This document shows, piece after piece, positions 11,328-54,914 of a stretch of DNA of 64,000 bases. The stretch covers positions 36,066 through 100,065 of the forward strand of contig CANFEB010000005.1 of the NCBI GenBank assembly GCA_947445775.1. The letters are read 5' to 3'. Numbering within the stretch: position 1 is the stretch's first letter; every line of letters starts with the position of its first letter. Below the pieces are notes generated by a model that was not told the origin of the DNA, searched no databases, and saw only the letters and a list, made by a program, of their open reading frames with translations. Source of the DNA: Oligoflexales bacterium (GTDB taxonomy: Bacteria > Bdellovibrionota_B > Oligoflexia > Oligoflexales > RGVZ01). Made by a program: the position numbers and the translations under genes.

Positions 11328-11580
11328 CATGCTATGTGACTGAGCTTCATATTGCCAAAAATATACTCAGTGATTACAACTGGTTATGAATGTGGCTTAT
11401 GTGACTAAGCCCAGAAGGGGACGTAACTCGCCATTTTTTCGTGACATTTATCAGCGACTTCGTCCCCTTAACTAATCAGCAATATCGTCCCATTTGAGGA
11501 TTCGACCAAACGCTGGAATTCTTTAGGTGATATTTCTCGGCTCCCTTGGTCAGCACTTTTTTTGTGCCATCACCACCTGT

Positions 11581-12015
11581 TTAAATGGCCAGGCTGGCCG
11601 CCCCAGCTGCACGCTTGCGCGCCTGCGCCATGAAACCGGTGCCAAGTTCTTGTTTGGCAGCGGCTGCCGCCGGGATGCTTCCACGTGCATTGACCGCGGT
11701 CACGCAGCCATACTGCATGACGGGTCGCCGCCGGAATTGCTGGACGAGATGGGGATTTTTTTGTTGGACTTTGATCCCCATTCCCCGGGGAAGCGAGGCC
11801 GGAGACTGCTTCTGCCTCGGTCTCTACTTCGCCAGAGGCTTCCTTCTCTGAGGAAGGAGAATTTTCGGCGCGATTAAGGCCAAGTGAGATACCTGCGTCT
11901 CGCCAGATTCCAGCATCTTTTGCGCCGTTCAAGTTCCCCAATGAGCGACAGGGACTCCAAGGTTATACTTCGCTCGCGGGTGTGCAGTTGTTTTGTTTCT
12001 TAGGAAAAACATAGC
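11581..12015 (-). pseudogene. HNH endonuclease gene remnant inside the transposon
   Basis: Fragments in shifting frames: ETKQLHTRERSITLESLSLIGELERRK; KMLESGETQVSHLALIAP; PAIPAATRHAVWLRDRGQCTWKHPGGSRC; AKQELGTGFMAQARKR*. Confidence 0.75.
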
Positions 12016-12129
12016 ATCAGTTTTTATACGAGTAATTTTTCGTGTTGGTCATGCCGTCAAAAAGATCTCCGCCATGGCAGTCAATATTGGCAGTGACAGT
12101 TAGCAACGATGTTTCATCTCGCGCCTCGA

Positions 12130-12414
12130 CGTGATCCCGTTCAATTCGCCCCTTTGACTCAGCCGAGTCGGTGGTGATAACGCGAATTCTTAGAGCTTCA
12201 TGGCTCTTCGCAGGCACGCACGAATTGAGAAAAATTCCGGCGTTCTTCGCCGCCGCCGGCCCAGCCGCTGTCATCCGTATAAATCATGGCCATGCCCCAG
12301 ATTGAAGTCTCGATAGACCTCGCGAGCCAGTTTCAGCATTTGATTACGTTTGCCGTCGTCGATGCGATTGGCGGCCGGCCTCTGATAATTCCTGGGGTTG
12401 ATTCCCGCGCCCAT
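12130..12414 (-). pseudogene. IS1202/ISNCY-type DDE transposase remnant
   Basis: NYQRPAANRIDDGKRNQMLKLAREVYRDFN; IYTDDSGWAGG..NFSQFVRACEE; LRIRVITTDSAESKGRIER (KGRIER catalytic-E region); SD GAAGGGGG before ATG 12414. Confidence 0.78.
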
Positions 12415-12434
12415 TAAGGCCCCCCTTCGATCCC

Positions 12435-12447
12435 TAACCAATTGATT
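12435..12447 (-). promoter_or_regulatory. IHF-consensus site inside the transposon end
   Basis: AATCAATTGGTTA matches WATCAANNNNTTR; one mismatch in copy 2. Confidence 0.4.
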
Positions 12448-12714
12448 TGGGTAGGAAGAGCTTAGGGGGTACGGGACGAAGTCGCTGATTAATTCAGACG
12501 GGACGATATCGCCGATGAATTACACTCTTTCGCAAAATAGGGACGCAACTGCGAACAAATATCTTGTTATTCTAAATGGTTAACGGTTTCCACAGGACTG
12601 TGATGATTTATCTTCAGGATTATGAGGATATCGTGACAATTGTAGCAAAAAACTGAGGGGGCGTTAAGCGCAATGGATAAGTGTTACCGAAAGGGCGCAT
12701 GGGTTCAGGCTGAA

Positions 12715-13629
12715 TCAATCGAGTGATTTTGAAACGCTGAGTCCAAATGTTGCCGCAGAGGCTTCTTGGATATTGGTCTGGCCAAGGCTCACGCCCACAT
12801 GCCAATTCGCCAGATTCACCATGGCCGTCGCTGTGCCGCGCGTCACAAGTCCAAATCCGTTGGTTATTTTCGTTGGGAACCCAGAAGATTCGCTCATATC
12901 ACTCTCGCCAACAACACCGGCAACATAAGCCAGTCCCGCATCGATCTCGCCACGAAATGAAACCCGGTGGGCGCTATACAGTGTGTAACCTAGGCCGGCG
13001 AGGCCGCTGTAAATGTTAGCATCGAAGGATTGGACATCAACGCCTCGGGTTTCGTGTCCCAGGTAATCACGTTCAACATAGGCCACGGATACTTCACCCG
13101 CGACTGTGGTAAACATGGCGCGCCCTGTCAGTTCAAGATCCTGCCAACTCCGAGTTATCCAAGCCCCTGTGGCTTCAATGCCCGCAGCCCCTGGTCCGAT
13201 AGAGAAACTCGCGGACGCCACGGTTGCGTCGATCAGGCGACGGCCTTGATTGCGTTGAATGGTATAAAGTTCTTCAATCGACGTTGGGTCGGTGACGTTG
13301 CTAAGCAATGCCACCCGTTCGCCGCCACTAACGCTCGAGTAGGCCTTGTCGATGCCAACGATGCGGCGTTTGCCCGCCATCTTTTGGACGCGCCCGTAGG
13401 CAACCAGACGATCATCACTGGAAAAAAATCCAACGCGGTCGCCCGTGATTAATTCTGGCGAAGAAACAATGCACTGCTTGCCAGAGGCATTGCAGCTTTC
13501 AACCTGGGCAACCTTAGCTGCCTTGGCAACGTTGCTACCGAGCGCCAGTAGCAGCAACACCAACATTTTAAGGAGAGCAGCAAAATCTGGTTTTGATTTT
13601 GACTTTTGGAAGCTGTTTTTACGGGACAT
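12715..13629 (-). CDS. Hypothetical exported protein, probable C-terminal outer-membrane beta-barrel
   Basis: Signal peptide ending in AKA; alternating beta-strand pattern in the C-terminal half. Confidence 0.65.
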   Translation of the reverse strand: MSRKNSFQKSKSKPDFAALLKMLVLLLLALGSNVAKAAKVAQVESCNASGKQCIVSSPELITGDRVGFFSSDDRLVAYGRVQKMAGKRRIVGIDKAYSSVSGGERVALLSNVTDPTSIEELYTIQRNQGRRLIDATVASASFSIGPGAAGIEATGAWITRSWQDLELTGRAMFTTVAGEVSVAYVERDYLGHETRGVDVQSFDANIYSGLAGLGYTLYSAHRVSFRGEIDAGLAYVAGVVGESDMSESSGFPTKITNGFGLVTRGTATAMVNLANWHVGVSLGQTNIQEASAATFGLSVSKSLD

Positions 13630-13797
13630 GTTCGGAAACCCCATCACGTTCGCTGCTATTGATGCAAGGATGAGGCCGCGAAGTGCATTGATATTATTGA
13701 TTGATTACAGGGTGTTGACTGGTTATACTTGAGTCTGACTGTCAACAGTTTGGTCAAGGGTTCTGGTTGTGTTACCGTTTTGGGCTCGGAGGAAGCG

Positions 13798-14229
13798 ATG
13801 GAACCATCATCGGATTTGTCAGTTGAATTGCCCGACGACCAGAAACAGAAGTCGCGGTTGGTCTGGATTGCCGCAGCTTTGGTAGCCGGATTGGCGACGT
13901 TGTATGTGGGGCGCTATCTCTTGGTGCAATTCACTCAGGGACGAACCCAGCAGGGTGAGTCAGGTGACGAGTTTTTGATCGACGGTTTTGAAAAGGGAGT
14001 GTTTCGCCAAATTCAATTGGGCGATTACCCGCAAATTCTAGTCGAAGACAGCGAAGGTAAATTAAACGCCTACGCTTGTTCGGACGGCTGCCCACCACTT
14101 GATCAAAATCCAGATTTGTACCTGAACCAGCAAGTTCGGGTTTTCTTGCGCAGTCAGTCGACTCCAGGGAGCGACGATCCTGTAGACAACGATATCAAGG
14201 TTGTTGTTCGCGTTGAGCTAGTGCCTTGA
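13798..14229 (+). CDS. Hypothetical single-TM membrane protein
   Basis: SD GGAGG before ATG 13798; one hydrophobic helix. Confidence 0.65.
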   Translation: MEPSSDLSVELPDDQKQKSRLVWIAAALVAGLATLYVGRYLLVQFTQGRTQQGESGDEFLIDGFEKGVFRQIQLGDYPQILVEDSEGKLNAYACSDGCPPLDQNPDLYLNQQVRVFLRSQSTPGSDDPVDNDIKVVVRVELVP

Positions 14230-14695
14230 GGGCTTCTAGCGCTTCAACCGCTTCAACCGCTTTTATATTTTGAACCAAGATTCCTTGATAAATCTGCCAA
14301 GCACGCAGCCAAGATAGTCGCTGGCGTTCCTGAGGCAAGCGGCCAAGCCATTCCGGCAGGGTGGCCAGACGCAAGGGCCGGCTTGGGTCGGCAGGAATGA
14401 TGCCGGTGGGTTTAAGGTTTTCGGATTGAACAACGTAAAGAGTCGCCGGAATTTTCGATTCCAGCATCACAATATCCTCAAAATCTGGACAGACTTGATA
14501 GCCCGCCGGCTCCAAGGCGAATCCGAGGCGACTCCTGATCATATCCGCAATTTGTGGCAGGATCGGCATGAGCGGCTGCACCTGCAAATGCAGGCCGGCC
14601 CATGGCCCAGGATCAGATGGAAACATCCACAGTCCGTTGCCGCCATCCAATGGCACCAGGATCAGCGCACGATCCGTTTTGCAGTTCACTAACAT
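14195..14695 (-). CDS. Hypothetical protein downstream of mglA
   Basis: 166-aa ORF with SD AGGAGG, 17 bp after the mglA stop. Confidence 0.65.
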   Translation of the reverse strand: MLVNCKTDRALILVPLDGGNGLWMFPSDPGPWAGLHLQVQPLMPILPQIADMIRSRLGFALEPAGYQVCPDFEDIVMLESKIPATLYVVQSENLKPTGIIPADPSRPLRLATLPEWLGRLPQERQRLSWLRAWQIYQGILVQNIKAVEAVEALEALKALAQREQQP

Positions 14696-14712
14696 TCGCG
14701 ATCCTCCTGGTT

Positions 14713-15294
14713 TCAGATGGACAAGGTTTTGATGATCTGTCGGGCGACCGACTGTAACGTCTCAAGGGTGCCGACGGAGCGGGTCGCAATGGCCTCGTGA
14801 TCCGGGAAGCCACCTGAATTTAGTTCTTCGCGGAGGACATCAACGGGCATGATGTCGTCCATGTCGCGTTTGTTATATTGAATGACTCGTGGGGTTTCGC
14901 TGATGCTGTAGCCGTGATCAGCGAGAAGGCGGCGCACATGAGTCATGGATTCAATGTTGTCTGCCATGGCTTCAATCCGCGAATCGGCGACGAAGACAAA
15001 GGCATCAAGCCCTTTCATCAAGGTATGCTGAAGGGTTTCGTAAAGGGTGTGCACCGGCATCGTATAAAGGTGCAGCTTCACATGGAAGTCTTTGACCTTG
15101 CCCAGGCTTACCGGCAGAAAATCAAAAAACGGAGTCGGCCCGGCATTGCCGGACATATCGACCATTCCGGCCTTCATTTCACCTGCTGTGCTGGTATAGA
15201 CCGACTTTAGATTTAAGGTTTTTCCGGCCGACTGGGGTCCGAAATAGATCACCTTGCAGTGGATTTCGCGGGTTTCAAAGTTGGTAAAGGCCAT
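14713..15294 (-). CDS. mglA: MglA-family small Ras-like GTPase (catalytically divergent)
   Basis: Colinear with MglA: REIHCKVIYFGP..GKT, FFDFLP, KGLDAFVFVADS, IQYNKRD. Confidence 0.88.
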   Translation of the reverse strand: MAFTNFETREIHCKVIYFGPQSAGKTLNLKSVYTSTAGEMKAGMVDMSGNAGPTPFFDFLPVSLGKVKDFHVKLHLYTMPVHTLYETLQHTLMKGLDAFVFVADSRIEAMADNIESMTHVRRLLADHGYSISETPRVIQYNKRDMDDIMPVDVLREELNSGGFPDHEAIATRSVGTLETLQSVARQIIKTLSI

Positions 15295-15317
15295 ACACCC
15301 GCCCCACGTCTGGAAAG

Positions 15318-17006
15318 TCAGTCAATGTTCTTGATACGAACATTTTCCACTTTTCCGCCGAAAACTTCCAGAACATCACGGGTTGTCTGATGGTTTACGG
15401 CAGCCTGACGCAAGGCGTCGTGGCGTTGTAGCGTTTCACGTTCGCTTTTTTGGGCCAGGGACTCCGGTGGGGATGCCGCAGCGGTGGTATCGGCAATGGC
15501 TGTGAAATTTGTCTGGGGCTGGGCTTTTTCAATGACGATTCGACCCTGAAAGCCAAAAAGGTCTGAGAATGACTGCTTCAGTCTGGCTTGCTCGTCCGGG
15601 TTTAGCAGGCAGCGGGCAAAAGACGATTCCAGCACGGTCAGAGAAATCAATTCTGGACTGTAAACATGAGGATGAGCATCTTCAAGTTTGCCGGCTTGGA
15701 GGGGACGGTGATGGCGCCAGATAGCGACTAGATCATGCCATGTCGCCGGAAAGACTTTGATTTTTTTGGCTGTCTCCGATGCAACCGGCGCTGAAGCAAC
15801 GAGCACTTGAGCGGCGGGTGATTGAGCAACGGGTGCGGCCATTGGCTGTGCAGGGACTTGGGTGGTTTGGACGAGTTGGGCCGTTTGGCGGAGTTGTTGG
15901 AGATCCGGCAGCCCCGGGTCCAGGCACCACTCAAAAGCGTAGTTTTCAAGAATGCAACGGTCCAGCGGGCTGCCGTCAAGATCTTGCCGGCAGCGAACGA
16001 GAGTCCTGAAAATTCGGTTTAAATCAAAATTGGCGGCAGACTTGCCGATCTTTTCCAGTTCCTGAAGTTCGCCCGCATCCAGATCAAGCTGCGCGAGGTC
16101 CAAGGCGTCGCATCCCAAGTCACGGATGACAAAAGTGTGGCGCGTGAGTTGGGCTAAATCTTCAACGACGCTCATTAAATCAGTGCCGGTTTGCTCAATC
16201 TGGTCGATGGTTGCCACCAAAAGTTTGGAGTCTTTGGCGACCAATGCGCGAAGCAGGGTTGTGATCAGTTCCCTGGGTGCCTGGGCCGTGATGCCTTCGC
16301 ACAATGCAGCGGTCAGCTTGCCATTGCTGATGGCGATGGCCTGGTCAAGGAGGGTTAGCGCATCCCGCATGGACCCGCGGGCTTCACGTGCAATTGGCCG
16401 CAAAGATCCAGGCTCGTGAGGAATCCCCTCAAGGCGCAGGATTTCTTCAAGGCGAGACACCACGGTTGCTGAGGTCATTTTCTGCAGCAAGAAAACCTGG
16501 CAGCGCGACAAAATCGTCTGGGGGATTTTCTGCAATTCCGTCGTGGCGAACAAGAAAACCACGTGCGCCGGAGGTTCTTCCAGCGTCTTGAGGAGCGCAT
16601 TGAAGGCGCTCTGCGACAGCATGTGAACTTCGTCGATTAGATAAATTTTATATTTCGAGCGTTGTGGGACATAACCGATGGAATCGCGCAACAACCGGAC
16701 GTCATCAACGCTCGTGTTCGATGCTCCGTCAATTTCCAGGACATCTTCATGATTGCCGGCGGAGATGGCATGGCAGCTTTCGCATTCTCCACATGGTGAA
16801 GGCGTCGGACCTGACTCGCAGTTTAGAGCCTTGGCGTAGAGGCGAGCTGTGGTGGTCTTACCCACCCCGCGGACCCCGGAAAATATGACCGCTTGCGGAG
16901 TCCTACCCATACGGATGGCGTTGGCCAGTGCCTGGGCTGTCGTGTCTTGTCCGACCAATTGATTAAAAGTTTGGGGGCGATATTTTCGGGCAAGTGGCTG
17001 AGTCAC
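15318..17006 (-). CDS. dnaX: DNA polymerase III subunit gamma/tau
   Basis: LARKYRPQTF, GVRGVGKTT, CxxCxxC, EIDGAS, IDEVHML, NALLKTLEEPP, SRC. Confidence 0.97.
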   Translation of the reverse strand: MTQPLARKYRPQTFNQLVGQDTTAQALANAIRMGRTPQAVIFSGVRGVGKTTTARLYAKALNCESGPTPSPCGECESCHAISAGNHEDVLEIDGASNTSVDDVRLLRDSIGYVPQRSKYKIYLIDEVHMLSQSAFNALLKTLEEPPAHVVFLFATTELQKIPQTILSRCQVFLLQKMTSATVVSRLEEILRLEGIPHEPGSLRPIAREARGSMRDALTLLDQAIAISNGKLTAALCEGITAQAPRELITTLLRALVAKDSKLLVATIDQIEQTGTDLMSVVEDLAQLTRHTFVIRDLGCDALDLAQLDLDAGELQELEKIGKSAANFDLNRIFRTLVRCRQDLDGSPLDRCILENYAFEWCLDPGLPDLQQLRQTAQLVQTTQVPAQPMAAPVAQSPAAQVLVASAPVASETAKKIKVFPATWHDLVAIWRHHRPLQAGKLEDAHPHVYSPELISLTVLESSFARCLLNPDEQARLKQSFSDLFGFQGRIVIEKAQPQTNFTAIADTTAAASPPESLAQKSERETLQRHDALRQAAVNHQTTRDVLEVFGGKVENVRIKNID

Positions 17007-17023
17007 GAAAAAACCTCAAAAAA

Positions 17024-17153
<130 letters not shown>

Positions 17154-17163
17154 AACTCAGCTA

Positions 17164-19899: not shown

Positions 19900-20031
19900 T
19901 GGGGACAGCTCCTCGATTCGGCTTAGAGTAACGACCAGCAACTGTGAACAAGGGCCTTAACGACCGATCAGGCTCAAGAGAATAGCAGAGAAATATCGAC
20001 GTGCGCTACGAATCATAGATATAGGCGGCCC

Positions 20032-20069
20032 AAAAAAAAATCGCCCTGGCTTGTGGCCAAGGCGATTTT
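20032..20069 (-). terminator. Rho-independent terminator
   Basis: aaaatcgccttggc-caca-agccagggcgatttt hairpin ending in a T9 run on the minus strand. Confidence 0.85.
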
Positions 20070-20091
20070 ACCGGTGTTACCGGAAGTCGAC

Positions 20092-20358
20092 TTACTTGTG
20101 GGCGGCACCGTGAGCAGCGCCTTCAGCCGGCGCAGCTGCTGGAGCAGCGTCGTAAGCAGCTGCCGGAGCAGCAGCTTCTTTTTTAGCTGCTTTTTTTGCT
20201 TTTTTAGCAGCTTTTTTTGCTTTCTTTACTTCTGTGTGATCAGCGGCCGGAGCAGCAGCTTCGACAGCAGCCGGAGCAGCAGCCGGAGCAGCAGCATCGT
20301 TTGCGAATGCCGGAGCAGACAGACCGATCAGAGCAGCAGCGAGAATTACATTTTTCAT
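20092..20358 (-). CDS. Small exported Ala/Lys/Pro-rich protein (Asr-like composition)
   Basis: SD AGGAGAG; signal MKNVILAAALIGLSAPAFA; AAAP and KKA repeats; own terminator. Confidence 0.8.
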   Translation of the reverse strand: MKNVILAAALIGLSAPAFANDAAAPAAAPAAVEAAAPAADHTEVKKAKKAAKKAKKAAKKEAAAPAAAYDAAPAAAPAEGAAHGAAHK

Positions 20359-20627: not shown

Positions 20628-20676
20628 CTTCCGGCGTTTTCCCTCTCATGTTTAATTCAACGATTTATGGCTGTTT

Positions 20677-34582: not shown

Positions 34583-35521
34583 TTAGCTCCTCACCGGTCC
34601 AGGGGATTTGGCGATCATTCGTTTCATTTCGACGATACGCCGGGTGTCATCCAATGTCAGCGATTCGTTCTTTTCAAATGATTCTACTGCCGCCTTCGCT
34701 GCTTTGGTTTTTTGCTGTTTCACGAGGATGCGGACCATGGATTCGACCGGCTCAGGGCACTTCGGACACACCGCCGTTGCCGTTTCCAGCTTATCGATGG
34801 CCAGAAGGTTGCGGTGGGTTGTTTCGTAAATGCGCGCCATTTTCAGCAGGGTCATGAAGTTGGTCGGGTTTTCTTCCAGAGCCTTCGCGTACCAGCGCTC
34901 TGATCGAATTGAATCATTCGACAATTCCGCGATAAGGCCGAGGTTGTGAAATATCCGTTCCCGGTAGCGGTAGGTCTTGGCCGGCTCGGAAGCCGCAGCC
35001 TCCTTGAGAAGAGTTGTGGCCTTGGCATACTGGCGCCCCTGAATGTAGGCAGAGCTGAGGTTAAGGGTAAAAGTCAAATTGTCGGGCCGCATGTGGCGCG
35101 CCGTTTCCAGGGCTTCCCTAGCCTTGGTGGTGTTGCGCAGTGACAGTTGGACCAACCCATGAAGGTTGATGACATCTGGATCTGCGGGATATTCCCTCAG
35201 AAGGGTTTTAACCTCTCTAAGGGCCTGGGTGGATTGGCCGCTGTCCAAGGAGTTGGTTACGATCTGTTTTTTGGTTTCGAGAAGGTTGACGCCCTCGTTG
35301 GGGTCGCGGTCACGGTTCAACGACTGGCATGCGGACAGGCCGCAGAATGCTATTAAAGTTAATATATACAGATACTTATTTTGTTTATCGGCGTTTGTTT
35401 TCGGCACCTGAAGGTTTCCTTCCATATCCGGATCCTCCGGAGCTGAGATATTGCCTTGCCGATGGTCCTGTGGGGTGGCATTCATTATAAATAGCCACAC
35501 ACGAACAGGGGCCTTGGTCAC
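34583..35521 (-). CDS. TPR lipoprotein (PilF/PilW-like)
   Basis: Lipobox LSAC, TPR helices; divergent from a RodZ-like gene; true start probably downstream. Confidence 0.7.
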   Translation of the reverse strand: MTKAPVRVWLFIMNATPQDHRQGNISAPEDPDMEGNLQVPKTNADKQNKYLYILTLIAFCGLSACQSLNRDRDPNEGVNLLETKKQIVTNSLDSGQSTQALREVKTLLREYPADPDVINLHGLVQLSLRNTTKAREALETARHMRPDNLTFTLNLSSAYIQGRQYAKATTLLKEAAASEPAKTYRYRERIFHNLGLIAELSNDSIRSERWYAKALEENPTNFMTLLKMARIYETTHRNLLAIDKLETATAVCPKCPEPVESMVRILVKQQKTKAAKAAVESFEKNESLTLDDTRRIVEMKRMIAKSPGPVRS

Positions 35522-36868: not shown

Positions 36869-37729
36869 ATGATTTTACAGACGTTCGTTGAGATCCCGGC
36901 CCTTGATGCCTTCCGGTTGTCGCTTTTCTCTGCTGGCAAAAAGCTGGCGTTTGTCCCGACCATGGGCGCCCTTCATGAAGGCCACATTTCCCTCGTTAAA
37001 CAGGCCCGCCAAAACGCGGACGCTGTCATTGCCAGTATCTTTGTAAACCCCTCCCAATTTGGACCCGGCGAAGACTTTAATCGCTACCCACGGACGTTGA
37101 CCGAAGATGCCGCCAGACTTGCAGAAGCTGGCTGCGACGCGGTGTTCCTGCCAAATCTCGTTACGATTTATCCTGATAATTTTCAGACCTGGGTGCGCAA
37201 CGAGGTTCTGGAAAATGACTTGTGCGGCGCGAGCCGGCCGGGCCATTTTCGTGGGGTGCTCACCGTGGTCCTCAAATTGCTGAATCTTGTCCGCCCCGAC
37301 GTCGCATTGTTCGGTAAAAAGGATTATCAACAGTGGCGCCTTATTGAAAAAATGGTCGACGACCTGAATGTTCCCGTTAAAATTCTGGGCGGTGAAACGG
37401 TCCGCGAGCCGGATGGTCTGGCCATGAGCAGCCGGAACCGGTACTTGCAGGACGGGGAGCGCCCCGCAGCGGTGGCGATTTCCAGGGGGCTCAAGGCCGC
37501 GCTGGAAAAATTCCGCTCTGGCGAACTGAAGGTACAAGTGCTGTTGGATCTAGCGTCCAAGGAATTTGCCGCGCAACCAACGATCAAGGTTGAATACCTG
37601 GCGATTTGTGAACAGGCTTCCCTTGCCCCGGTCAAAGAGTCCATTTCGGGGGCTGCTGTGATTCTTGTTGCGGCACGGTTGGGGGAACTTCGATTGATTG
37701 ATAACATGGAACTGAACCCGGTCGGTTGA
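36869..37729 (+). CDS. panC: Pantoate--beta-alanine ligase
   Basis: FVPTMGALHEGH, SIFVNP.QF, RPGHF.GV, FGKKDYQQ, DGLAMSSRN, RLIDN. Confidence 0.97.
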   Translation: MILQTFVEIPALDAFRLSLFSAGKKLAFVPTMGALHEGHISLVKQARQNADAVIASIFVNPSQFGPGEDFNRYPRTLTEDAARLAEAGCDAVFLPNLVTIYPDNFQTWVRNEVLENDLCGASRPGHFRGVLTVVLKLLNLVRPDVALFGKKDYQQWRLIEKMVDDLNVPVKILGGETVREPDGLAMSSRNRYLQDGERPAAVAISRGLKAALEKFRSGELKVQVLLDLASKEFAAQPTIKVEYLAICEQASLAPVKESISGAAVILVAARLGELRLIDNMELNPVG

Positions 37730-37750
37730 ACAACTCGGTGGATCCATCTC

Positions 37751-40324
37751 GTGCCCCTGTTGATTGCAATACAATTAATGCGCATTTTCTGGTGGCTTCG
37801 CTTGCCGATTGACTGGTGGGTGAAGGCTAAAACTTTGCCCAAGGATCCGATCGTTGATGCCGGAATTGATCCCTCCAAACCCGTATGTTTTGTCACGCCA
37901 ACTGGATCACTGTCTGACCTCATGGTGATTGACGGGCGGTGCCGGCAGCTTGGCCTGCCGCGCCCAAGATTTCCTGCAGCGACATTACGGAATTACGTCC
38001 CGGCGCGAGGTGGGGCAGCCCACATGTTCCTGAGCAGTCTGAACCTGTTCCAGGCCGACCGCGAGAGCCGCAGGGAGATCCTCCGTCCCCTGACAAGGAT
38101 GGTGGAACATGCCCGTACCAATCCTGAATTCAATGTGCAGTTGGTTCCGGTTTCGGTGTTTTGGGGAAGGAACCCGGGCAAGAGCGAACAAAGTTTGCTG
38201 CAATTGCTCTTTTTCGACGACGAGCATGCCGGGGTTATTCAGAAACTGTTTATTGTAATCGTTCAGGGCCGCAATGTTCTGGTGCAGTTTGGGCGTCCGA
38301 TCGATTTGCAAACTCAGGTCCGTAATAGTGAATCCGCCGACCAGGTCGCGCGCAAGCTTTCACGGGTTATGCGCGTTTACTTCAAAACCCAGAGGTTTCT
38401 ATCGGTCGGTCCGAGCCTTGCCAACAAGCCCCGGGTTATTGAAACTCTTGTCCGGACCAAGGCGGTTCGCAGTCTGATCGAAGATGAAGCGCGAAAATCT
38501 GGAAAAAAACTGCACAAGGTCGAACAAGAAGCACGCGAATTTGCCTTTGAGATCGCGGCAAGTCCGTCCTACCCGTTCGTCAGAGCGACTGAAATCACGC
38601 TCAAATATTTGTGGCAAAAAATGTTCACGGGACTCGTCATTCGCGGGATCGACCGGGTTCACCGGATCGGTGCCAACCATGAAATCATCTACATGCCGAG
38701 TCACCGCAGTCACATCGATTACCTTTTACTGGGGCAATCTCTCTATTCTGAAGGATACGTCGTCCCGCACACGGCGGCCGGGATCAACCTGAATTTTTGG
38801 CCCGTCGGGGGTGTGTTGCGTAAGATCGGCGCCTTTTACATTCGCCGGACCTTTAGTGGTAATAAATTGTATGCCGCAGTGTTCAGTGAATATGTCTATT
38901 ACCTTGTGACCAGCGGCTTTCCGATAAAATTTTTTCCCGAAGGGGGGCGCAGCCGCACGGGCAAATTGCTGCCGCCGAAAACGGGTTTTCTTTCCATGGC
39001 CGTTCAAAGCTACTTACGAAATTCAGACCGGCCGATCGCATTGATTCCAATTTTTCTGGGATACGACCGTGTTTGGGAAGCCAACACCTACATCAAGGAA
39101 TCCCGTGGCGCCAAGAAACGAAGCGAATCCATTGGCCAGTTGCTGGGATCCGTGGGGGATCTGCGCAAGACATTTGGCTCGGCGTATGTTTCCTGCGGGC
39201 AGCCCTTGGAGTTGGGGGAATACCTGACCCAAAAGAGGCCCGGATGGAAGGCTGAAGTGGCCCAATCCGATTCGCGTCCTTCCTGGACTAATCCCATGAC
39301 CCAAGAAATAGCTCAGGAAATCATGTGCCGCATCAACGCGGCTGCTGTGCTGGGGCCTGTTTCTCTGGTAGCGACCGCTTTGCTATCGGTGCCGAATCGG
39401 GCGCTTGCAGAGGATCAGTTGTGTGAGCTTCTAGATGGGTTGTTGCAGCTTCAACGCCTTGCCCCCTATAGCCCGGATGTTTTTGTCCCTGAATTGAACG
39501 GCGCACCAGCCATTGGTAAGTCTGCTATCGCTGCCGCAGAGCGGGTTGAGGCCTGCCGCAGGCTGCCCTTGCCGGGCGGCGACGTGATTTATACGGACGA
39601 AGAAGGGTGCAAGGCTCTGACGTATTACAGCAATATGACCTGCCATCTGTTTTTGATTCCAGCGGTAATCGCGCGCCTTTTTCAGCATTGCGATCAATTG
39701 ACCGTCAGTGAAGTTATTGCCGCGGTGTGCGACGCGGTGCCATTTTTACGCAATGAATACTTTCTCGCGATGGAGGATGCGGTCATCCCGGAGCAGGCTG
39801 CCCGAGTTCTTCAGGCGATGATTCTGGCGGGATTTATCGAGGTCCCGGGACAACGGAACAAGAGCCATTTGGATGGTGATGAAATTGTGTGTCGTCCGGG
39901 TTTGTCATCAAACCGTTTTATGTGGCTGCAATCCCTCGCCAGGGTTTGCGCGGGATCTCTCGACCGCGTCGGTATCGGTTTTGCGATGCTTGGGGCTGGT
40001 GGACCACTGCGTGCGGTCAAACGTCGGGAATTTGAATCAGCATTTGCCGCAACGGGCCACCGGTTGGATGCCATGCGCGGCTCTGATGCTTCTGGTGCTT
40101 TTGATTCACCGCAATTGCGGTCCTTTGTGGACACGCTGGTCAGGCGCGGCCTGGTTGAAATCCAGGACGCACAAGATGAAATTTTTAGCCCCGAAAACGG
40201 AGCAGCTTCGACTGAAGTTGTTCAGCAAATTGTAGCCTTGTCCGGAGTGAAGCAGATGGCTCAATTGCCGCGTCTGTTGCTTGGTACAGACATGTCACAC
40301 AGCATCGGGCGCAGTCCGGTCTGA
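37751..40324 (+). CDS. plsB: Glycerol-3-phosphate O-acyltransferase
   Basis: PVSVFWGR.P, SHRSHIDY (HX4D), AAGINL.FWP, GAFYIRR, FPEGGRSRTGK. Confidence 0.92.
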   Translation: MPLLIAIQLMRIFWWLRLPIDWWVKAKTLPKDPIVDAGIDPSKPVCFVTPTGSLSDLMVIDGRCRQLGLPRPRFPAATLRNYVPARGGAAHMFLSSLNLFQADRESRREILRPLTRMVEHARTNPEFNVQLVPVSVFWGRNPGKSEQSLLQLLFFDDEHAGVIQKLFIVIVQGRNVLVQFGRPIDLQTQVRNSESADQVARKLSRVMRVYFKTQRFLSVGPSLANKPRVIETLVRTKAVRSLIEDEARKSGKKLHKVEQEAREFAFEIAASPSYPFVRATEITLKYLWQKMFTGLVIRGIDRVHRIGANHEIIYMPSHRSHIDYLLLGQSLYSEGYVVPHTAAGINLNFWPVGGVLRKIGAFYIRRTFSGNKLYAAVFSEYVYYLVTSGFPIKFFPEGGRSRTGKLLPPKTGFLSMAVQSYLRNSDRPIALIPIFLGYDRVWEANTYIKESRGAKKRSESIGQLLGSVGDLRKTFGSAYVSCGQPLELGEYLTQKRPGWKAEVAQSDSRPSWTNPMTQEIAQEIMCRINAAAVLGPVSLVATALLSVPNRALAEDQLCELLDGLLQLQRLAPYSPDVFVPELNGAPAIGKSAIAAAERVEACRRLPLPGGDVIYTDEEGCKALTYYSNMTCHLFLIPAVIARLFQHCDQLTVSEVIAAVCDAVPFLRNEYFLAMEDAVIPEQAARVLQAMILAGFIEVPGQRNKSHLDGDEIVCRPGLSSNRFMWLQSLARVCAGSLDRVGIGFAMLGAGGPLRAVKRREFESAFAATGHRLDAMRGSDASGAFDSPQLRSFVDTLVRRGLVEIQDAQDEIFSPENGAASTEVVQQIVALSGVKQMAQLPRLLLGTDMSHSIGRSPV

Positions 40325-45256: not shown

Positions 45257-45265
45257 GGGGATTAT

Positions 45266-47475: not shown

Positions 47476-47505
47476 TGACATGGCCTGGAATCAACTAAAA
47501 CCCCC

Positions 47506-48525: not shown

Positions 48526-48605
48526 TGATTTTGAAGTGCTTTGTTTTCAAATTCGCTGTGATAGACTTTCTCCAGACCTGATTAAATCACTTTTTGGGGG
48601 TGTCC

Positions 48606-49085
48606 ATGCCGAAGTCCTGGTGGGATGCAGTGCGTGAAATAGCCTCTTTAGTCGTTCGTGATGGCCTCCATCAAGCCGACGAGGGTGTGATGCGCCGGGC
48701 TTTGCTGTCTTCTGGCTTTGAGGAAGAAGCCATCATTAAGGCGTTTGACTGGATTGATCATGCTGAGCGGTCCGGTAATGTTCTCGAAGCTCTGGTGATG
48801 TTGGCTCCGCGACCGGAGGGCATTCGTGTGGCCCATCCGATGGAGCGTATGTTTGTTTCCGATCGCCTTTGGAATGAAATTGGTCGTGCCCGTCAGCGCG
48901 AAGTGATGAATACCGATCTTGCCGAAAGGGTGCTTGAGGGAATTCGCGCCCTCGATACGCGTGATTGGGAAGACAATGAAGTTCGTTCTTTCATTGCAGA
49001 CTTGATGGCCGATGCGACTGTTTCTGGTGACGCAAGCCGCGCCGAGCAAATCCTGAAGGATCAACTTCCGGAATTTTATTCGTAG
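48606..49085 (+). CDS. Smg/DUF494-family protein
   Basis: L.SSGFEEEAI.KAFDW, RVAHPME; between dprA and topA. Confidence 0.75.
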   Translation: MPKSWWDAVREIASLVVRDGLHQADEGVMRRALLSSGFEEEAIIKAFDWIDHAERSGNVLEALVMLAPRPEGIRVAHPMERMFVSDRLWNEIGRARQREVMNTDLAERVLEGIRALDTRDWEDNEVRSFIADLMADATVSGDASRAEQILKDQLPEFYS

Positions 49086-49253
49086 ATTTATTGACTGTAA
49101 GTACTTGTTTTTATTTAAAAAATTTCATTGTAGCTTGCTGCTTCTGGTAGCAAGCTGTTACTGATCCGAAGGTGCGTTCATTTATAATAAATGGGCGATT
49201 TCGCTTTTTTTCACAAAAAATCAAAGCCAATCGCCATTTTCTGGGATCTCCTT

Positions 49254-51569
49254 GTGGCAAAATTTCTGGTTGTTGTTGAGTCTCCCACCAAGGTCAAAGC
49301 ACTTAAAAAATACCTCGGCAAGGATTACGAAGTTCTGGCTTCCAAGGGGCACGTCAAGGATTTGCCCGCGAGTTCTCTGGGCGTTGACGTGGACAAGGGG
49401 TTTGAGCCCCAGTACGTAACGATTCCCGGCAAAGAAAAGATTCTCAAAGACATCACCTCTGCAGCGCAACTTGCTGACACCGTATACCTCGCGCCTGACC
49501 CGGACCGCGAAGGGGAAGCCATTGCCTGGCACATCGCCAGTGAATTGAAGAAGCCAAAGGACAAAATCCGGCGGGTATTAATCCACGAGATCACGAAAAA
49601 GGGGGTGCAAGACGCCCTTTCCAGTCCTCTTGATCTTGATTTGAAGAAATTTGAATCGCAGCAAGCACGCCGCATCCTCGACCGTTTAGTCGGTTACCAG
49701 ATTAGTCCTATTCTCTGGAAAAAAGTGAAGCGCGGATTGTCGGCCGGACGCGTGCAGAGTGTCGCTGTGCGCTTGATTTGTGAGCGTGAGCAGGAAGTTC
49801 GCAAATTTAATCCGGAAGAATACTGGAGCATCGAGTCCAAACTTGACGCTGATTCGCCGCCGCAGATTGTAGCGCGCCTTGCTGCTGTGGATGGCCGTAA
49901 GATCGGCAAAGATTTTGAGATTCGCAATGGCGAAGATGCTGAGGTTATTAAAAAGCGCCTCAAGTCTGCCCCGGTCGTGGTCAAGTCGGTGCAACGCAAG
50001 GAGCGTAAACGCAATCCAGTCCCGCCGTTCACCACATCTAAATTGCAGCAGGAAGCATTCCGTAAGGTTGGTTTTAATGTGAAACGGACGATGTCTGTGG
50101 CGCAAAGCCTATATGAGGGTGTCGAGATCGGTGGTGATGGCCCCGTTGGTTTGATCACCTACATGCGTACCGATTCAACCCGGGTTTCCGATGAAGCGCT
50201 GACGAACGTCCGCGAGCACATCAGCAAGCGATATGGCCCGGAGTTTTTGCCCGATAGTCCAATCATCTACAAAACCAAGAAGTCGGCCCAAGATGCCCAT
50301 GAGGCCATCCGTCCGACCATGCTGGAATATCCGCCGGAAACCCTAGTCAGTCACCTGTCTAAGGAACAATTGGGACTATATCGCTTAATCTGGAACCGCT
50401 TCGTGGCCAGCCAGATGAAACCCGCAATATTTGATCAAATGAGTGTCGAGTTTTCTGCCGATGCGGAAAAGTTGTTGCTGCGCGCGAGCGGCAGCCGGAT
50501 CCTCTTTAAGGGGTTTCTTGAGGTCTACGAAGAAGGCCGCGATGAAACCGCTAAACGTAAGGATGCCGTTGACTCTGGCGAGGATGAAGAAGAAATGGCC
50601 CAGGGCGGTATTTTGCCACCTCTCCAAGAAGGCAAGCCCATAAAACTGCTGGACGTGGTCACTGAGCAGCACTTCACTCAGCCGCCGCCACGTTTTAATG
50701 AATCATCCATGGTCAAGGAACTCGACGAACAGGCAATTGGTCGGCCTTCGACCTATGCAACCATTTTGTCGACCATTGTGGACCGTGGATATGTCCGCAA
50801 AATTGATAACCGGACCTACGAGCCGACGATACTTGGCGAAAAGGTCAACGAGCTGCTTGTCGAGGCATTTCCCGACATCGTCAGCGTTCAGTTTACGGCC
50901 AGCATGGAAGACGGGCTCGACAAGGTCGAAGAGGGCGGAGTCGAGTGGCGGCGTTTGCTTGCCGATTTTTACGAGAAATTTTCTGCCAAGTTGAAAACGG
51001 CCGAAACGGGGATGCGCAACGTTAAGGGACAATCTGAGCCAACGGATATCAAATGCAATCGCTGTGAAACCGGGATCATGCACATCAAGTGGTCGTCCCG
51101 CGGCGAATTCCTAGGCTGCTCCGGTTATCCCAAGTGTCGGGGCACCAGTGAGTTCACTCGCCTCAGTGACGGAAAAATTCAGCTGATCCAGCCAAAAGTC
51201 ACTGGCGATAAGTGCTCAAAGTGCGGCAAAGATATGATCGCTAAGACGGGCCGTTTCGGTGATTACATCGCCTGCATCGATTACCCGACGTGCCCAACGG
51301 TGAAGAGTCCGCCCCCGGAAGTGGATTGCCCTCAGGAAAGTTGCAGCGGTGGCCTTGTTGGCCGTAAGACCCGCATTGGCAAGATGTTCTGGGGATGCAT
51401 CAACTATCCGTCTTGCAGCTACGCGGTTTGGGACAAGCCGGTGGCAGTCAAGTGTGAAGGTTGCTCCTTTCCGATCATGACGCTGAAATCCACCAAGCGC
51501 GATGGCAACCGTTACGTTTGCCCTTCGTGTAAGAACGCGGTGGAAGCTCCAGAATCTCCAGAAGCCTGA
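49254..51569 (+). CDS. topA: DNA topoisomerase I
   Basis: VVESPTK, DPDREGE, SAGRVQS, LITYMRTDS, AHEAIRPT; C-terminal zinc ribbons. Confidence 0.97.
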   Translation: MAKFLVVVESPTKVKALKKYLGKDYEVLASKGHVKDLPASSLGVDVDKGFEPQYVTIPGKEKILKDITSAAQLADTVYLAPDPDREGEAIAWHIASELKKPKDKIRRVLIHEITKKGVQDALSSPLDLDLKKFESQQARRILDRLVGYQISPILWKKVKRGLSAGRVQSVAVRLICEREQEVRKFNPEEYWSIESKLDADSPPQIVARLAAVDGRKIGKDFEIRNGEDAEVIKKRLKSAPVVVKSVQRKERKRNPVPPFTTSKLQQEAFRKVGFNVKRTMSVAQSLYEGVEIGGDGPVGLITYMRTDSTRVSDEALTNVREHISKRYGPEFLPDSPIIYKTKKSAQDAHEAIRPTMLEYPPETLVSHLSKEQLGLYRLIWNRFVASQMKPAIFDQMSVEFSADAEKLLLRASGSRILFKGFLEVYEEGRDETAKRKDAVDSGEDEEEMAQGGILPPLQEGKPIKLLDVVTEQHFTQPPPRFNESSMVKELDEQAIGRPSTYATILSTIVDRGYVRKIDNRTYEPTILGEKVNELLVEAFPDIVSVQFTASMEDGLDKVEEGGVEWRRLLADFYEKFSAKLKTAETGMRNVKGQSEPTDIKCNRCETGIMHIKWSSRGEFLGCSGYPKCRGTSEFTRLSDGKIQLIQPKVTGDKCSKCGKDMIAKTGRFGDYIACIDYPTCPTVKSPPPEVDCPQESCSGGLVGRKTRIGKMFWGCINYPSCSYAVWDKPVAVKCEGCSFPIMTLKSTKRDGNRYVCPSCKNAVEAPESPEA

Positions 51570-51591
51570 TGCGGGCGGGGGAGAACCCGTT

Positions 51592-52521
51592 GTGCATGCT
51601 GGTGACCGATTGTTCGCAACCATCTTTGACGTTTTCGATGCAAGTCCCGCCCTTGACGAAGTTTTCTTTAATGGTGCGGACGTTGCCGCTTCCGGATCAT
51701 TTCGGGGCGAGCCCACCCTTCGGCAAAACCTGATTCCGTGCCTTGATTCATTTTTTGGATCTAGCCTGGCGGTTCTGGATTGGCTGCAGGATTTAGCCAC
51801 GGCCTGCAATTCAAGGCTCGATCCGATGTTTCCTTCTGCCGGCGGTAATGTTCCGGAGCGTGCCGCGCGTTGGCATGCCCTGTTTCCACCGCTGGTTCGC
51901 AATGGGCCGGTGTTTACGGTTAGAAGAAATAGATTTGCAAGTTTGACCCTCGATGACTTCGCCATCCCAGATGTTCTGCGAGTAGCCCTGCTGGAGCACC
52001 TGCAACGGGGAGGATCTCTGCTGGTTTCTGGTCCGACTGGATCAGGAAAATCTTCGTTTGTTGCAGCGATACTCCGGCAATTTTTTTCATCGCGGCGCAT
52101 GGTTATTATTGAAACTGTCGAAGAACTTGGAAGTCTATCTACCAATTTTCTGAATATGGTTGTGCGGCCACCTAATTTGGCGGGCGCGGGGGCCGTCACC
52201 GCCAACTGGCTATTTGAAGAGGCCTTGAGGCTTCGGCCTGATGGGATTGTGATCGGCGAGATCAGGGGGCTTGAGGCGAGTGCATTTTGCAGCGCCGTTA
52301 CCAGCGGGCACCCATCTTGTTTTTCTACCATCCATGCTGGCGATGTGGATCAGGCCCGGTGGCGCTTAGGCTGGTTGGCCGGCCTGACGGGAATAACTGA
52401 GATGGCAGCCAGGACAGAGATGGCGGGGCTTACGGGGATGGTTATTCAACTTGCAAGGGCGGAAACCCAGGCTTCTGTTCCCGCTGTAGTTGGCTTTGGG
52501 CCACTGTCGAGGTTACAATAG
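51592..52521 (+). CDS. CpaF/TadA/VirB11-like secretion ATPase (short, divergent)
   Basis: GPTGSGKS, IETVEEL, ALRLRPD.IVIGEIRG.EA, SGH..FSTIHA; SD GGAG before GTG 51592. Confidence 0.78.
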   Translation: MHAGDRLFATIFDVFDASPALDEVFFNGADVAASGSFRGEPTLRQNLIPCLDSFFGSSLAVLDWLQDLATACNSRLDPMFPSAGGNVPERAARWHALFPPLVRNGPVFTVRRNRFASLTLDDFAIPDVLRVALLEHLQRGGSLLVSGPTGSGKSSFVAAILRQFFSSRRMVIIETVEELGSLSTNFLNMVVRPPNLAGAGAVTANWLFEEALRLRPDGIVIGEIRGLEASAFCSAVTSGHPSCFSTIHAGDVDQARWRLGWLAGLTGITEMAARTEMAGLTGMVIQLARAETQASVPAVVGFGPLSRLQ

Positions 52522-52559
52522 TCGTACAGCAATTAACCAGCATCCGGAGGTTCTCGCAC

Positions 52560-53447
52560 ATGAGCCGCATGATGAAATCACCAAAAATCATATTTTTGGC
52601 ATTGATGCTGGGGACTTCTGCCTGCAGCAAATCTCCTCAGAAGAAAAAAGACGATGCCGTGAACAATTTTGGCAACGGGGCCGTGGGCGACATGGTGCAA
52701 TGTGTGAGGGCCAAGTGCGATCCGGGGCGTCCCCAGTTGTATGTGAACGGCGTGTCGACTCCGCGCCTGACGGCCGAGATCAATCAGGCGGTGAACTGGC
52801 AGATTAGCGGCCGCTCGACGATGTATCCTGGCCGTTCCTATGCAGCCCTGCGAATGGATTTCAATCCACAAATGCCGCGGCTGACCGTACGTCAGAGTAC
52901 AGGGATGCTCAGTGGGTCTGATTCAATTGCCGTTAGCGGCCAATTGACAGCTGCTGAATTGCAGGCGGGTTCAACAGCGACGGTCGTGGTCCGCGACATG
53001 ACAGCCTGCCAGGTGCTTTCGACCGGGTCAGGGAATGCCACGGGCAATTCCGTCTGCAACAATTCCTCGCAGCCGACTCAATACGACACCACGCTGACGG
53101 CGACGGTTTCAGTTTCGAACAATGCCTACAATCCAAATGGTCCGTATGCGCAGATTCCTGGTACGCCCAATAACATGACGCCCAATAACTCCATGGACAA
53201 CCTTGGGATGAGAATTGGCATTGCCGCTGTGTTGGGCGGACTCCAGGCTCTTTTCGGACAAAATAATAATGCGGCGGGAGTTCTGGGCGGTTCTGTTAAT
53301 GGGGCCATCCAAGGCTTGAATCAATCCCCGTACGCTGGCGGCACTAGCAACATGTACAACGGCAATGCCTATTATAACCAGAATGCCTATCAGCCGAACA
53401 ACAATTCTGGATACAATAACGGACCCAACAACATCCGGGGCTACTAA
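52560..53447 (+). CDS. Hypothetical lipoprotein with glycine-zipper-like segment and N/Y-rich tail
   Basis: SD GGAGG; lipobox TSAC; low-complexity C-terminus. Confidence 0.75.
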   Translation: MSRMMKSPKIIFLALMLGTSACSKSPQKKKDDAVNNFGNGAVGDMVQCVRAKCDPGRPQLYVNGVSTPRLTAEINQAVNWQISGRSTMYPGRSYAALRMDFNPQMPRLTVRQSTGMLSGSDSIAVSGQLTAAELQAGSTATVVVRDMTACQVLSTGSGNATGNSVCNNSSQPTQYDTTLTATVSVSNNAYNPNGPYAQIPGTPNNMTPNNSMDNLGMRIGIAAVLGGLQALFGQNNNAAGVLGGSVNGAIQGLNQSPYAGGTSNMYNGNAYYNQNAYQPNNNSGYNNGPNNIRGY

Positions 53448-53449
53448 AC

Positions 53450-54337
53450 ATGAAGCATACATCTGTCATTCTGGTTGCTAGTTTGTTGGGCGCAGCAAGT
53501 CTCGTCGGTTGCAAAATGACAAGCACCGATCAATCAAACAAAAAATCGATAGACGCGGTGGCCACTGGCGATCAGTCTCTGCGTTCTAACGTCGCCTGTG
53601 GGCCTGGCAGCATGGCAAACAGCAATGTGTCAGAAGCGGTTGTCCGTTCCTATGTTGCCCTGCCGCCGTTTCTTCAGATGCAGTATCCGGATCTGAATCA
53701 ATCATTTCGAATCAGCGAACAACCAGCCAAAGATTGCTTGATTTCCTTTAAGGGAATGCCGGCAGCGGGGATGTCTACGGCGGAGCAGGGGTTTATGAAG
53801 GGCGATCGCCTGGACGCGCTGAAGGCATGTTGGGTGGCTCCAGTTCCAGCGCCTGGCGAGACGCAAGAGCCACGCATTTTGATGGGAGCAACACTTCAGG
53901 ACGTCCACAATTCAATGATCGTCACCTCGTTTTATGCCTTTGCGGAATGGTATATGGACCGGGTATTTGGACCGGCAATCGCTGCGGCAGGATCAACTCA
54001 GGGCAAGGATCTTGGCACCAAGGGTGAAGACCTGATCGCTTTCGTCGCAGAATTTTCCAGCGCTCGCAAGGCCATTGCAGCTGCGGTCATTGCGGACCTT
54101 GAGAAAGCCGGCAAAGCGGATGTCATTGCCAAATATGAACAGGATTTCAGTGCTCCTGCCGCATCGCTTTCTGCGAACGTAGGCTTTCAAAATTTTGTCT
54201 CTGCCGAATTCACTGATACTTGGTATTGCAGTGTTGAAACTCACGAGTCCCTCGTTAATTCGACGGTCTTCCCCAAGACACGCGAGGCCTACGCTGGCAT
54301 GGCCAAGCTGCTTGGCAAGGCATGGTTCGAAAACTGA
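53450..54337 (+). CDS. Hypothetical lipoprotein
   Basis: Lipobox LVGC; 2 bp after the upstream stop; AEFTDTWYCS motif. Confidence 0.75.
   Translation: MKHTSVILVASLLGAASLVGCKMTSTDQSNKKSIDAVATGDQSLRSNVACGPGSMANSNVSEAVVRSYVALPPFLQMQYPDLNQSFRISEQPAKDCLISFKGMPAAGMSTAEQGFMKGDRLDALKACWVAPVPAPGETQEPRILMGATLQDVHNSMIVTSFYAFAEWYMDRVFGPAIAAAGSTQGKDLGTKGEDLIAFVAEFSSARKAIAAAVIADLEKAGKADVIAKYEQDFSAPAASLSANVGFQNFVSAEFTDTWYCSVETHESLVNSTVFPKTREAYAGMAKLLGKAWFEN
54250..54337 (+). repeat. 88-bp direct repeat, copy A (3' end of 53450-54337)
   Basis: 85/88 identical to 56093-56180. Confidence 0.95.
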
Positions 54338-54914
54338 CATTAATCAGCGACTTCGTCTCTTCAACTGATCAGCAATATCGTCCTCTTTGTGGTTTCGACC
54401 AAACGCTGGAATTCTTTAGGGGAAGTTTCTCGGCCCCCTTGGTCAGCACTTTTTTTGTGCCATCACCACCTGTTTAAATGGGCAGGCTGGCCGCCCCAGC
54501 TGCGCGCTTGCGCGCCTGTGCCATGAAACCTGTGCCGAGTTCCTGTTCGGCAGCGGCTTGATTGTGGCGACGACACCGCAAGGTCAAATTATCTTCGGTA
54601 TGATCGCCGCTGGAATTGCTGGACGAGATGGGGATTTTTTTGTTGGACTTTGATCGCCATTCCCCGGGGAAGCTAGGGCGGAGACTGCTTCTGCGGCGCC
54701 TGAAGAGCGGCTGACGAGCCCAAGGCGATAATCTTGCAGACGCCTGAGACCCACCGATTCCGGTTCTTACACCTAGGGTTCATAAAGATACCTCCCGCTG
54801 TCATTAAGGCCTCCCTTCGATCCCTAACCCAATGATTTGGATAGGAAGAGCTTAGGGGGTACGGGACGAAGTCGCTGATTAATTCAGACGGGACGATATC
54901 GCTGATGAATTACA
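54335..54914 (-). mobile_element. Degenerate IS1202/ISNCY-type transposon copy 2 (MITE-like)
   Basis: Same TIRs and subterminal repeats as 11442-12524; keeps the transposase start (LQDYRLGLVSR) and the HNH C-terminus GDHTEDNLTLRCRRHNQAAAEQELG. Confidence 0.85.

Follow-up and report, generated by a model that had tools for sequence, protein, structure and literature searches.

Transporter insertion sequences (tIS) combine one transposase and one pair of ends with an extra gene that is not needed for transposition, usually a regulator, a methyltransferase or a resistance gene. Passengers are also known in the insertion sequence (IS) family IS1202, formerly filed under ISNCY, which comprises three subgroups and several members of which carry unrelated passenger genes (Siguier et al., 10.1101/2022.12.17.520857). 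In the printed description of this family, the transposases display a helix-turn-helix (HTH) and a DDE signature with two extra D between D1 and D2 and a Q seven residues past the E, the ends start with 5′-TGT and contain a second conserved domain around position 20, and the target repeats given for the ISTde1 subgroup are 15–17 bp long (10.1101/2022.12.17.520857). The present work deals with two deleted copies of an IS1202-like element associated with an HNH endonuclease gene, located in a stretch of 64,000 nucleotides (G000:C5:36066-100065, hereafter the window) of a metagenome-assembled genome, G000 (2.48 Mb in 60 contigs, 90% complete), whose relatives carry the label Oligoflexales. We consider it likely that an ISTde1-like element of the IS1202 family acquired the HNH gene once, between the 3′ end of its transposase gene and its distal end, and that the resulting composite element was moved by the DDE enzyme with long target duplications, lost its transposase and is now decaying by deletion.

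Set beside the printed description, the composite element appears closest to the ISTde1 subgroup. As far as that description goes, both have in common the HTH-DDE signatures (read in the intact transposase relative P0002, see below), a TGT at the transposase-side end, a conserved inner end domain, an occurrence in 'Deltaproteobacteria'-type lineages and, for one copy of the composite, a long target duplication. The composite differs in that all its copies are dead and in its HNH passenger. The first-pass annotation of the window, made from the letters alone, had not recognised a described IS architecture here. This judgement has to be narrowed: passenger genes as such are already in print for the IS1202 family, and what goes unmentioned, in the available parts of the paper, is an HNH passenger. 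The word 'HNH' occurs zero times in either of two IS1202 papers (a count that covers the papers without their supplementary tables), and nothing relevant came from literature searches that paired HNH with passenger genes, IS1202, ISNCY or ISTde1. Compared with the usual tIS, the passenger is here a nuclease gene, which is multicopy elsewhere and shows purifying selection across copies. The composite adds an HNH-carrying, now extinct member to a family whose members were already known to accommodate passengers, and it explains a dispersed repeat that breaks the assembly at four contig ends.

The two copies of the window (Table 1) align with each other in three blocks, corresponding to the HNH-side end (11442-11665 versus 54335-54558, 224 nt, 91% identity), the transposase-side end (12403-12524 versus 54793-54914, 122 nt, 93%) and an inner block (11725-11815 versus 54604-54694, 91 nt, 96%). 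In each copy, the two ends form inverted repeats of 21 nt with 95% complementarity (repeat pairs I8 and I9). The termini are of the TG...CA type, with TGACATTT on the HNH side and TGTAATTC, read inward, on the transposase side; their terminal 25 nt, read from the extracted ends, match at 19 of 25 positions and include a conserved TCGTCCC block at positions 19-25 of both ends. The 16-mer ATCRGCRAYWTCGTCC is found eight times in the 64-kb window for 0.03 expected, two times in each of the four ends and nowhere else. These results agree with the first-pass annotation, which had described shared ends, imperfect 25-bp TG...CA inverted repeats and a second repeat in each end. It had also mentioned a site like those of the integration host factor (IHF), and this detail did not hold: the IHF consensus WATCAANNNNTTR has two matches in the window for 2.28 expected, which is no excess over chance; copy 2 contains no match, and copy 1 a single one (12435-12447). 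Degenerate look-alikes of the end repeats, GGGACGTAACTCGCC and GGGACGCAACTGCG, are present just beyond both termini of copy 1 (11405-11441 and 12540-12556), in the orientation of the transposase-side repeats; they may be due to chance or be the trace of an older insertion.

The coding remnants were mapped by tblastn with two intact relatives, the transposase P0002 and the HNH protein P0001. Copy 1 retains pieces of both genes; its HNH remnant has lost the catalytic DH...N block. Copy 2 retains only the C-terminal part of the HNH protein (residues 219-242 and 289-332), which includes the NLTLRCRRHN block absent from copy 1, and the start of the transposase (GGIFMN..., about 20 codons), too short for a tblastn match. 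The HNH core is therefore incomplete in both copies. This map supports the earlier proposal that they are complementary deletion derivatives of one unit with the order end-transposase-HNH-end.

The intact transposase relative P0002 is a 387-amino-acid open reading frame (ORF) located in a genome of a sister genus, on contig G019:C130, the same as JBIIGV010000011.1 from a metagenome-assembled genome (MAG) of Oligoflexales. It matches the NCBIfam model NF033594 (ISNCY_2, ISNCY family transposase) with 359.7 bits for a cut-off of 250 and the Pfam families HTH_28, HTH_29 and rve, and the signatures of the IS1202 family can be read in its sequence: QMDGS, IAMIDDATS (with the two extra D between D1 and D2), IYTDQ and GRIERAWRTTQ (with the Q seven residues past the E). 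The transposase remnants of the window are 37–66% identical to the P0002 protein. In copy 1, IYTD and SKGRIER are the only signatures that survive and the position of the Q is deleted. Since the window's own fragments fall below the cut-off, the membership of the two copies in the IS1202 family follows from their homology to P0002 and from the common ends. The search of these fragments with protein family models that the annotation had proposed succeeded in part, with weak and colinear matches to NF033594 (E 0.099 at model positions 41-77 and E 0.016 at positions 221-243) and no relevant Pfam family in eight pieces. Taken through P0002, the transposase of the element is an ISNCY/IS1202-type DDE enzyme with an HTH, as had been suggested from the motifs of the fragments.

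The IS encoding P0002 is about 1.34 kb long and contains a single ORF. Both of its ends carry two repeats of about 17 nt located 8–10 nt apart, followed on the transposase-3′ side by a GACCAAA block. Together with its counterpart in G027, this sister IS has the same end design as the composite and differs by its length, its single ORF and the absence of an HNH gene, the latter occupying in the composite the place where the G019 IS has only about 80 nt from the transposase stop codon to the tip. According to the first-pass annotation, full-length copies with these ends but without the HNH gene would speak against its reading of a DDE IS with a dedicated nuclease passenger; the nearest relative, with the same end architecture, is indeed such an IS, and the composite itself stands nonetheless as a lineage-specific variant. 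Around nine more distant transposase loci, a scripted search for ends and target duplications detected pairs of ends for only two (1323 and 1360 bp), with no clear duplication. Another relative of the transposase (41% identity), in L094 (RFKI01000051.1, a Bdellovibrio MAG; 745-3789), lies in a 510-amino-acid open frame followed by a 466-amino-acid open frame, and may be another passenger-carrying member of the family.

The association between the IS and the HNH gene is not limited to the window. By tblastn, HNH fragments are joined, in one and the same order, to ends of the IS or to transposase fragments at eight loci of G000. The longest copy (C43:3598-~5200) presents the HNH-side end, residues 17-237 of the transposase and an HNH gene that is nearly complete but split over two frames. 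Four contigs (C1, C19, C24 and C51) end within the HNH gene, all near one position, which indicates at least two more copies hidden by the assembly. The composite reached about ten loci. In every copy of adequate length the HNH pieces adjoin the same end, and both gene order and junctions are fixed in all the longer copies. Seven ends of each type were extracted from the whole of G000: the flanking sequences diverge at the TG in 7/7 HNH-side and 6/7 transposase-side ends, the seventh transposase-side row (C1) being explained by an extraction offset, with the same terminus located 27 nt further inward. The HNH-side end starts with TGACATTT in six of the seven copies and with TGTAATTC in one (C13). 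The copy at C1:139810 is bordered by a perfect 18-bp direct target duplication, GTTGGCTCATCGCAACAG. In addition, the two genes flanking copy 1, an amino-acid-kinase-family gene and a 329-amino-acid gene, are separated by 52 bp in G001, by 24 bp in G006 and by 1405 bp in G000. The site is thus empty in both relatives and copy 1 is an insertion.

The fragmented state of the assembly, 60 contigs for 90% completeness with four of them interrupted inside the element, raises the question of whether these repeats are transposon relics at all, rather than segmental duplications or an artefact of metagenome assembly. We find this explanation scarcely credible, given the precision of the common termini, the 18-bp target duplication and the sites that are empty in relatives. 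Moreover, homologous ends flank the intact ISNCY transposase of another genus, and the element occurs independently in two other genomes and on metagenome contigs. The composite thus did exist and transposed whole, and the single parent with the layout end-transposase-HNH-end, postulated at first from the two window copies, is one that multiplied whole. The flank of the end at C1:799, GTTGGACTCGTTGCATCC (C1:800-817), is identical to GTTGGCTCATCGCAACAG (C1:139792-139809) at 13 of 18 positions; for these two sites only, a target preference is possible. The whole interval 11442-54914 was also considered as a composite transposon bounded by the two copies and was rejected, as its outer flanks show no duplication and copy 1 has simply inserted between two genes that are direct neighbours in related genomes.

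The set of internal deletions differs from copy to copy. One deletion junction of copy 1 is located at a direct repeat of 12–13 nt and is common to two fragments of contig C10. We do not retain it as a proof that a deleted form was copied, because the same deletion could recur at this direct repeat. The C10 fragments (G000:C10:32964-33161 on the minus strand and 37703-37906 on the plus strand) are HNH fragments of about 200 nt in inverted orientation with identical outer boundaries, and they bracket about 4.5 kb that includes a transposase fragment (34685-34763).

No intact transposase of this kind was found in the seven genomes of the genus. In G000, no match exceeds the cut-off of NF033594 (best score 11.6 bits), and a search of the seven genomes with P0002 yielded fragments only, in G000 and G005. 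The DNA search detected the element in three of these seven genomes (G000, G001 and G005), while five genomes outside the genus have matches to the ends or to the transposase only. Beyond the genus, the pairing of the two genes disappears. No HNH gene was found beside the transposase relatives at 33 loci (100% to 23% identity, flanks of up to 2.5 kb where the contig allows), and no recognisable transposase beside HNH relatives outside the composite at 22 loci (±3 kb; this set includes a second G001 copy whose decayed transposase remnants are seen at the DNA level) or at 12 metagenome loci. The composite is a lineage-specific variant in one genus and not a general architecture.

These counts bear on the suggestion, made in the first-pass annotation, that a DDE IS had here a nuclease passenger dedicated to it, in a layout analogous to TnpA and TnpB. 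The resemblance to the IS200/IS605 elements with TnpB or IscB is limited to this layout, in which one pair of ends encloses a transposase gene and, after it, a nuclease gene, and to the HNH domain that is also present in IscB. By contrast, their transposase is of the HUH and not of the DDE type, the pairing of the two genes is conserved across their family, and their nucleases combine RuvC with a guide RNA, neither of which was detected with P0001 and the six loci submitted to Rfam (no match to a guide or other RNA). P0001 scores 25.2 bits against the IscB model NF040563, for a cut-off of 175, with a match confined to the HNH region. A functionally integrated two-gene design, in which the nuclease would assist transposition or the repair of the donor, like TnpB with TnpA, would fit the fixed gene order and junctions, the presence of the composite at about ten loci when its HNH-less relative is met once in G019, and the purifying selection on HNH while the element diversified (see below). 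We nevertheless judge it highly improbable: the nearest intact IS contains no HNH gene and leaves no space for one, the pairing is absent at all 33, 22 and 12 loci examined and limited to three genomes of one genus, and HNH is also met as a lone chromosomal gene with ordinary neighbours.

The intact HNH relative P0001 is a 332-amino-acid ORF located in contig C16 of G001, from the same genus as the window genome. Its score against the Pfam HNH family (PF01844), which is marked by a ββα-metal core with conserved D-H...N...H-N and four Cys, is 21.6 bits, just above the cut-off of 21.4. In an alignment of 61 HNH sequences, C261, C271 and C300 are invariant and D280, H281, H303 and N304 are conserved at ≥90%. 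In the AlphaFold model of P0001, which is confident (mean predicted local distance difference test, pLDDT, 89.8), the N-terminal part is long and helical and is followed by a disordered linker (213-236) and, at the C-terminus, by a ββα core. The HNH part resembles 4h9d with a fold match probability of 0.93 but an E-value of 0.48, and a fold search with the whole model returned nothing at E ≤ 0.001, only weak local matches of HNH and ParB/Noc-like type. The latter correspond to the N-terminal domain (E 0.26 in sequence searches, E > 0.3 with Foldseek). Stand-alone HNH proteins of about 330 amino acids with a helical N-terminal domain are presumably of the REP13E12/DUF222-HNH type, which we take as a lead only. 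Such proteins have the same size and domain order as P0001 and are multicopy in some genomes, but P0001 has no DUF222 match at E ≤ 0.1; in one look-alike Atlas cluster, DUF222 is present on 21% of the members. The best 120 of 126 protein relatives are named 'hypothetical', 'HNH endonuclease' or 'McrA', and many of them are encoded on contigs of 1–3 kb.

The HNH family is much more widespread than the composite, with matches at E ≤ 1e-10 in 36 of the 95 genomes of the order. Several genomes have many matches (22 in G069, 13 in G061, 11 in G059 and 10 in each of G066 and G054), often at contig ends; in these five genomes the family repeats alone, with no transposase within 3 kb. In G035 and G005, HNH is present as one gene surrounded by ordinary chromosomal genes. 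When the composite is compared with these two stand-alone genes, DNA homology sets in 3 nt ahead of the start codon and does not extend beyond the coding region, with no homology upstream. In G069, what repeats is a unit of about 1.5 kb (83–91% identity; L066-L071, e.g., L067:2581-4103). This unit includes about 420–480 bp of conserved upstream DNA, where a sigma-70-like TTGACG/TATAAG pair can be read by eye about 200 nt upstream of the gene, and has at its 5′ edge an inverted copy, of about 100 nt, of an internal HNH-coding segment. It is possibly a transposase-free mobile unit. A TCGTCCC...GACCAAA motif at its edge was considered as an IS end and rejected: it is the reverse complement of the sequence encoding VW.RD, a conserved motif of HNH, with a different spacing, and its likeness is taken as chance.

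Rates of substitution were estimated from nucleotide alignments of ten composite HNH copies with the intact G001 gene, the comparisons sharing sequences and being therefore non-independent. The pooled ratio of nonsynonymous to synonymous substitution rates (dN/dS) is 0.20 in the true frame versus 1.25 and 1.65 in the other two frames. It ranges from 0.02 to 0.33 for the individual copies compared with the G001 gene, and from 0.02 to 0.62 among copies (37 pairs). Judged by these patterns, HNH was clearly a working gene, under purifying selection, through most of the divergence of the copies, which argues that it was not inert cargo. Most likely, it was a selfish hitch-hiker endowed with a nuclease activity of its own, and transposition did not require it.

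The fact that HNH stands alone and repeats by itself in other genomes fits a one-off capture as well as a nested insertion. In the second case, an HNH gene of the homing type would have invaded the IS at a site located between the 3′ end of the transposase gene and the end repeat, spread among its copies by cleavage and recombinational repair, and remained under selection after the decay of the transposase. The gene-sized homology with the stand-alone genes is the pattern left by a gene-sized insert, every copy of adequate length has HNH pieces next to the same end, and purifying selection is apparently stronger on HNH than on the transposase remnants. In this last comparison, the dN/dS of the transposase is based on 28-75 codons and on non-independent pairs. 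Furthermore, neither a duplication nor ends proper to HNH are present inside the IS, its junctions show no recognisable cleavage or target motif, and no HNH-less copy of this IS lineage, hence no homing target, has been seen in the genus, whereas the 18-bp duplication around an end-HNH-end copy is the outcome expected from DDE transposition. On balance, we consider such nested parasitism unlikely. Capture and homing are not separated by these data, because no HNH-less copy of the exact lineage has been seen. It is also rather doubtful, although worth stating, that HNH colonised a DDE IS as both landing pad and vehicle and perhaps drove its spread after the death of the transposase, its family then forming, elsewhere in the Oligoflexales, a mobile unit of about 1.5 kb that has no transposase and has gone unrecognised. 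Should HNH be self-mobile, the composite would be a clean example, provided by nature, of a selfish element that rode on another one and survived it, and the family a candidate for a new class of small nuclease-only mobile units in Bdellovibrionota.

Under the scenario that we favour, i.e., a single capture of HNH by an ISTde1-like element, the ancestral IS would have measured about 1.34 kb, with two ends that each bear two repeats of the transposase-binding type and one HTH-DDE transposase gene. In an ancestor of the Oligoflexales genus, the gene for the 332-amino-acid HNH protein would have been gained on the distal side of the transposase gene, between its 3′ part and the end. With an estimated length of 2.5 kb or so, the composite would then have transposed as a unit by means of the DDE transposase, with 18-bp duplications, and reached ten or so loci before the transposase was lost everywhere; its copies would finally have been whittled down by differing internal deletions, some of them at short direct repeats. 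We infer the order of these events, as well as the role of the DDE enzyme rather than HNH as the mover.

Several observations weigh against this scenario. The parent is a reconstruction, as no full-length composite with an intact transposase was found in its own genome, in 40 relatives (DNA), in 22 genomes of the family (protein), in genome_contigs (HNH and transposase) or in metagenome_contigs (HNH); the search with the ends through the genome and its relatives that the annotation had recommended thus failed to recover one. The last 60–85 codons or so of the transposase gene are unrecognised in any composite copy, and the 110–200 bp or so located between transposase residue ~300 and the start of HNH (NIDCHG...YKN) show no similarity to the intact transposase (E 12). 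Copies 1 and 2 have no target duplication, and only one of the seven HNH-side ends can be paired with a transposase-side end so as to show one; the ends other than those of these three copies lie on split contigs. This duplication, of 18 bp, exceeds by one the 15–17 bp printed for the ISTde1 subgroup, and the HNH-side end starts with TGA instead of the printed TGT. Finally, the dN/dS of the transposase remnants (0.24–1.28 for 10 pairs of 28-75 codons, a small sample) suggests a looser constraint than on HNH, which a purely transposase-driven spread does not predict.

Table 1. Features of the two window copies and positions of the combined loci in G000 (window coordinates unless a contig is given).
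Feature	Coordinates	Strand	Basis
Copy 1: internally deleted IS of 1083 bp, with both ends and fragments of the HNH and transposase genes (both genes on the minus strand)	11442..12524	-	
Copy 1, HNH-side (transposase-distal) end: TGACATTT, then 16-17-nt repeats 11450-11465 and 11475-11490, then conserved GACCAAAC block	11442..11521	+	
Copy 1, HNH remnants: residues 14-46, 79-100, 200-274 and 307-332 of the 332-amino-acid relative	11581..12064	-	tblastn
Copy 1, transposase remnants: residues 57-98, 191-231 and 225-300 of the 387-amino-acid relative; IYTD, SKGRIER	11987..12405	-	tblastn and weak colinear NF033594 matches
Copy 1, transposase-side end: TGTAATTC (inward), then 16-nt repeats 12501-12516 and 12474-12489	12440..12524	-	
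Copy 2: 580-bp derivative with both ends, HNH C-terminus and ~20 codons of the transposase start	54335..54914	-	
Copy 2, HNH-side end: repeats 54343-54358 and 54368-54383	54335..54414	+	
Copy 2, transposase-side end: repeats 54891-54906 and 54864-54879	54831..54914	-	
The eight combined loci in G000	C1:1-799; C1:139810; two window copies; C7:1165; C22:41618; C24:1-691; C43:3598		

The first three bases of the HNH-side end of copy 2 (TGA) serve as the stop codon of a 305-amino-acid gene (53420-54337). The last 29 codons and the stop codon of this gene belong to an 88-bp direct repeat (97% identity; 54250-54337 and 56093-56180) that brackets copy 2 together with a 382-amino-acid ORF (54910-56058, minus strand) matching no Pfam family. 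The outer genes are 253 bp apart in G004 and 663 bp apart in G005, versus 1898 bp in G000, which corresponds to about 1.8 kb of extra DNA in the latter. A duplication of 88 bp does not correspond to the footprint of a transposase; the integration of a circle by a single crossover would be compatible with it.

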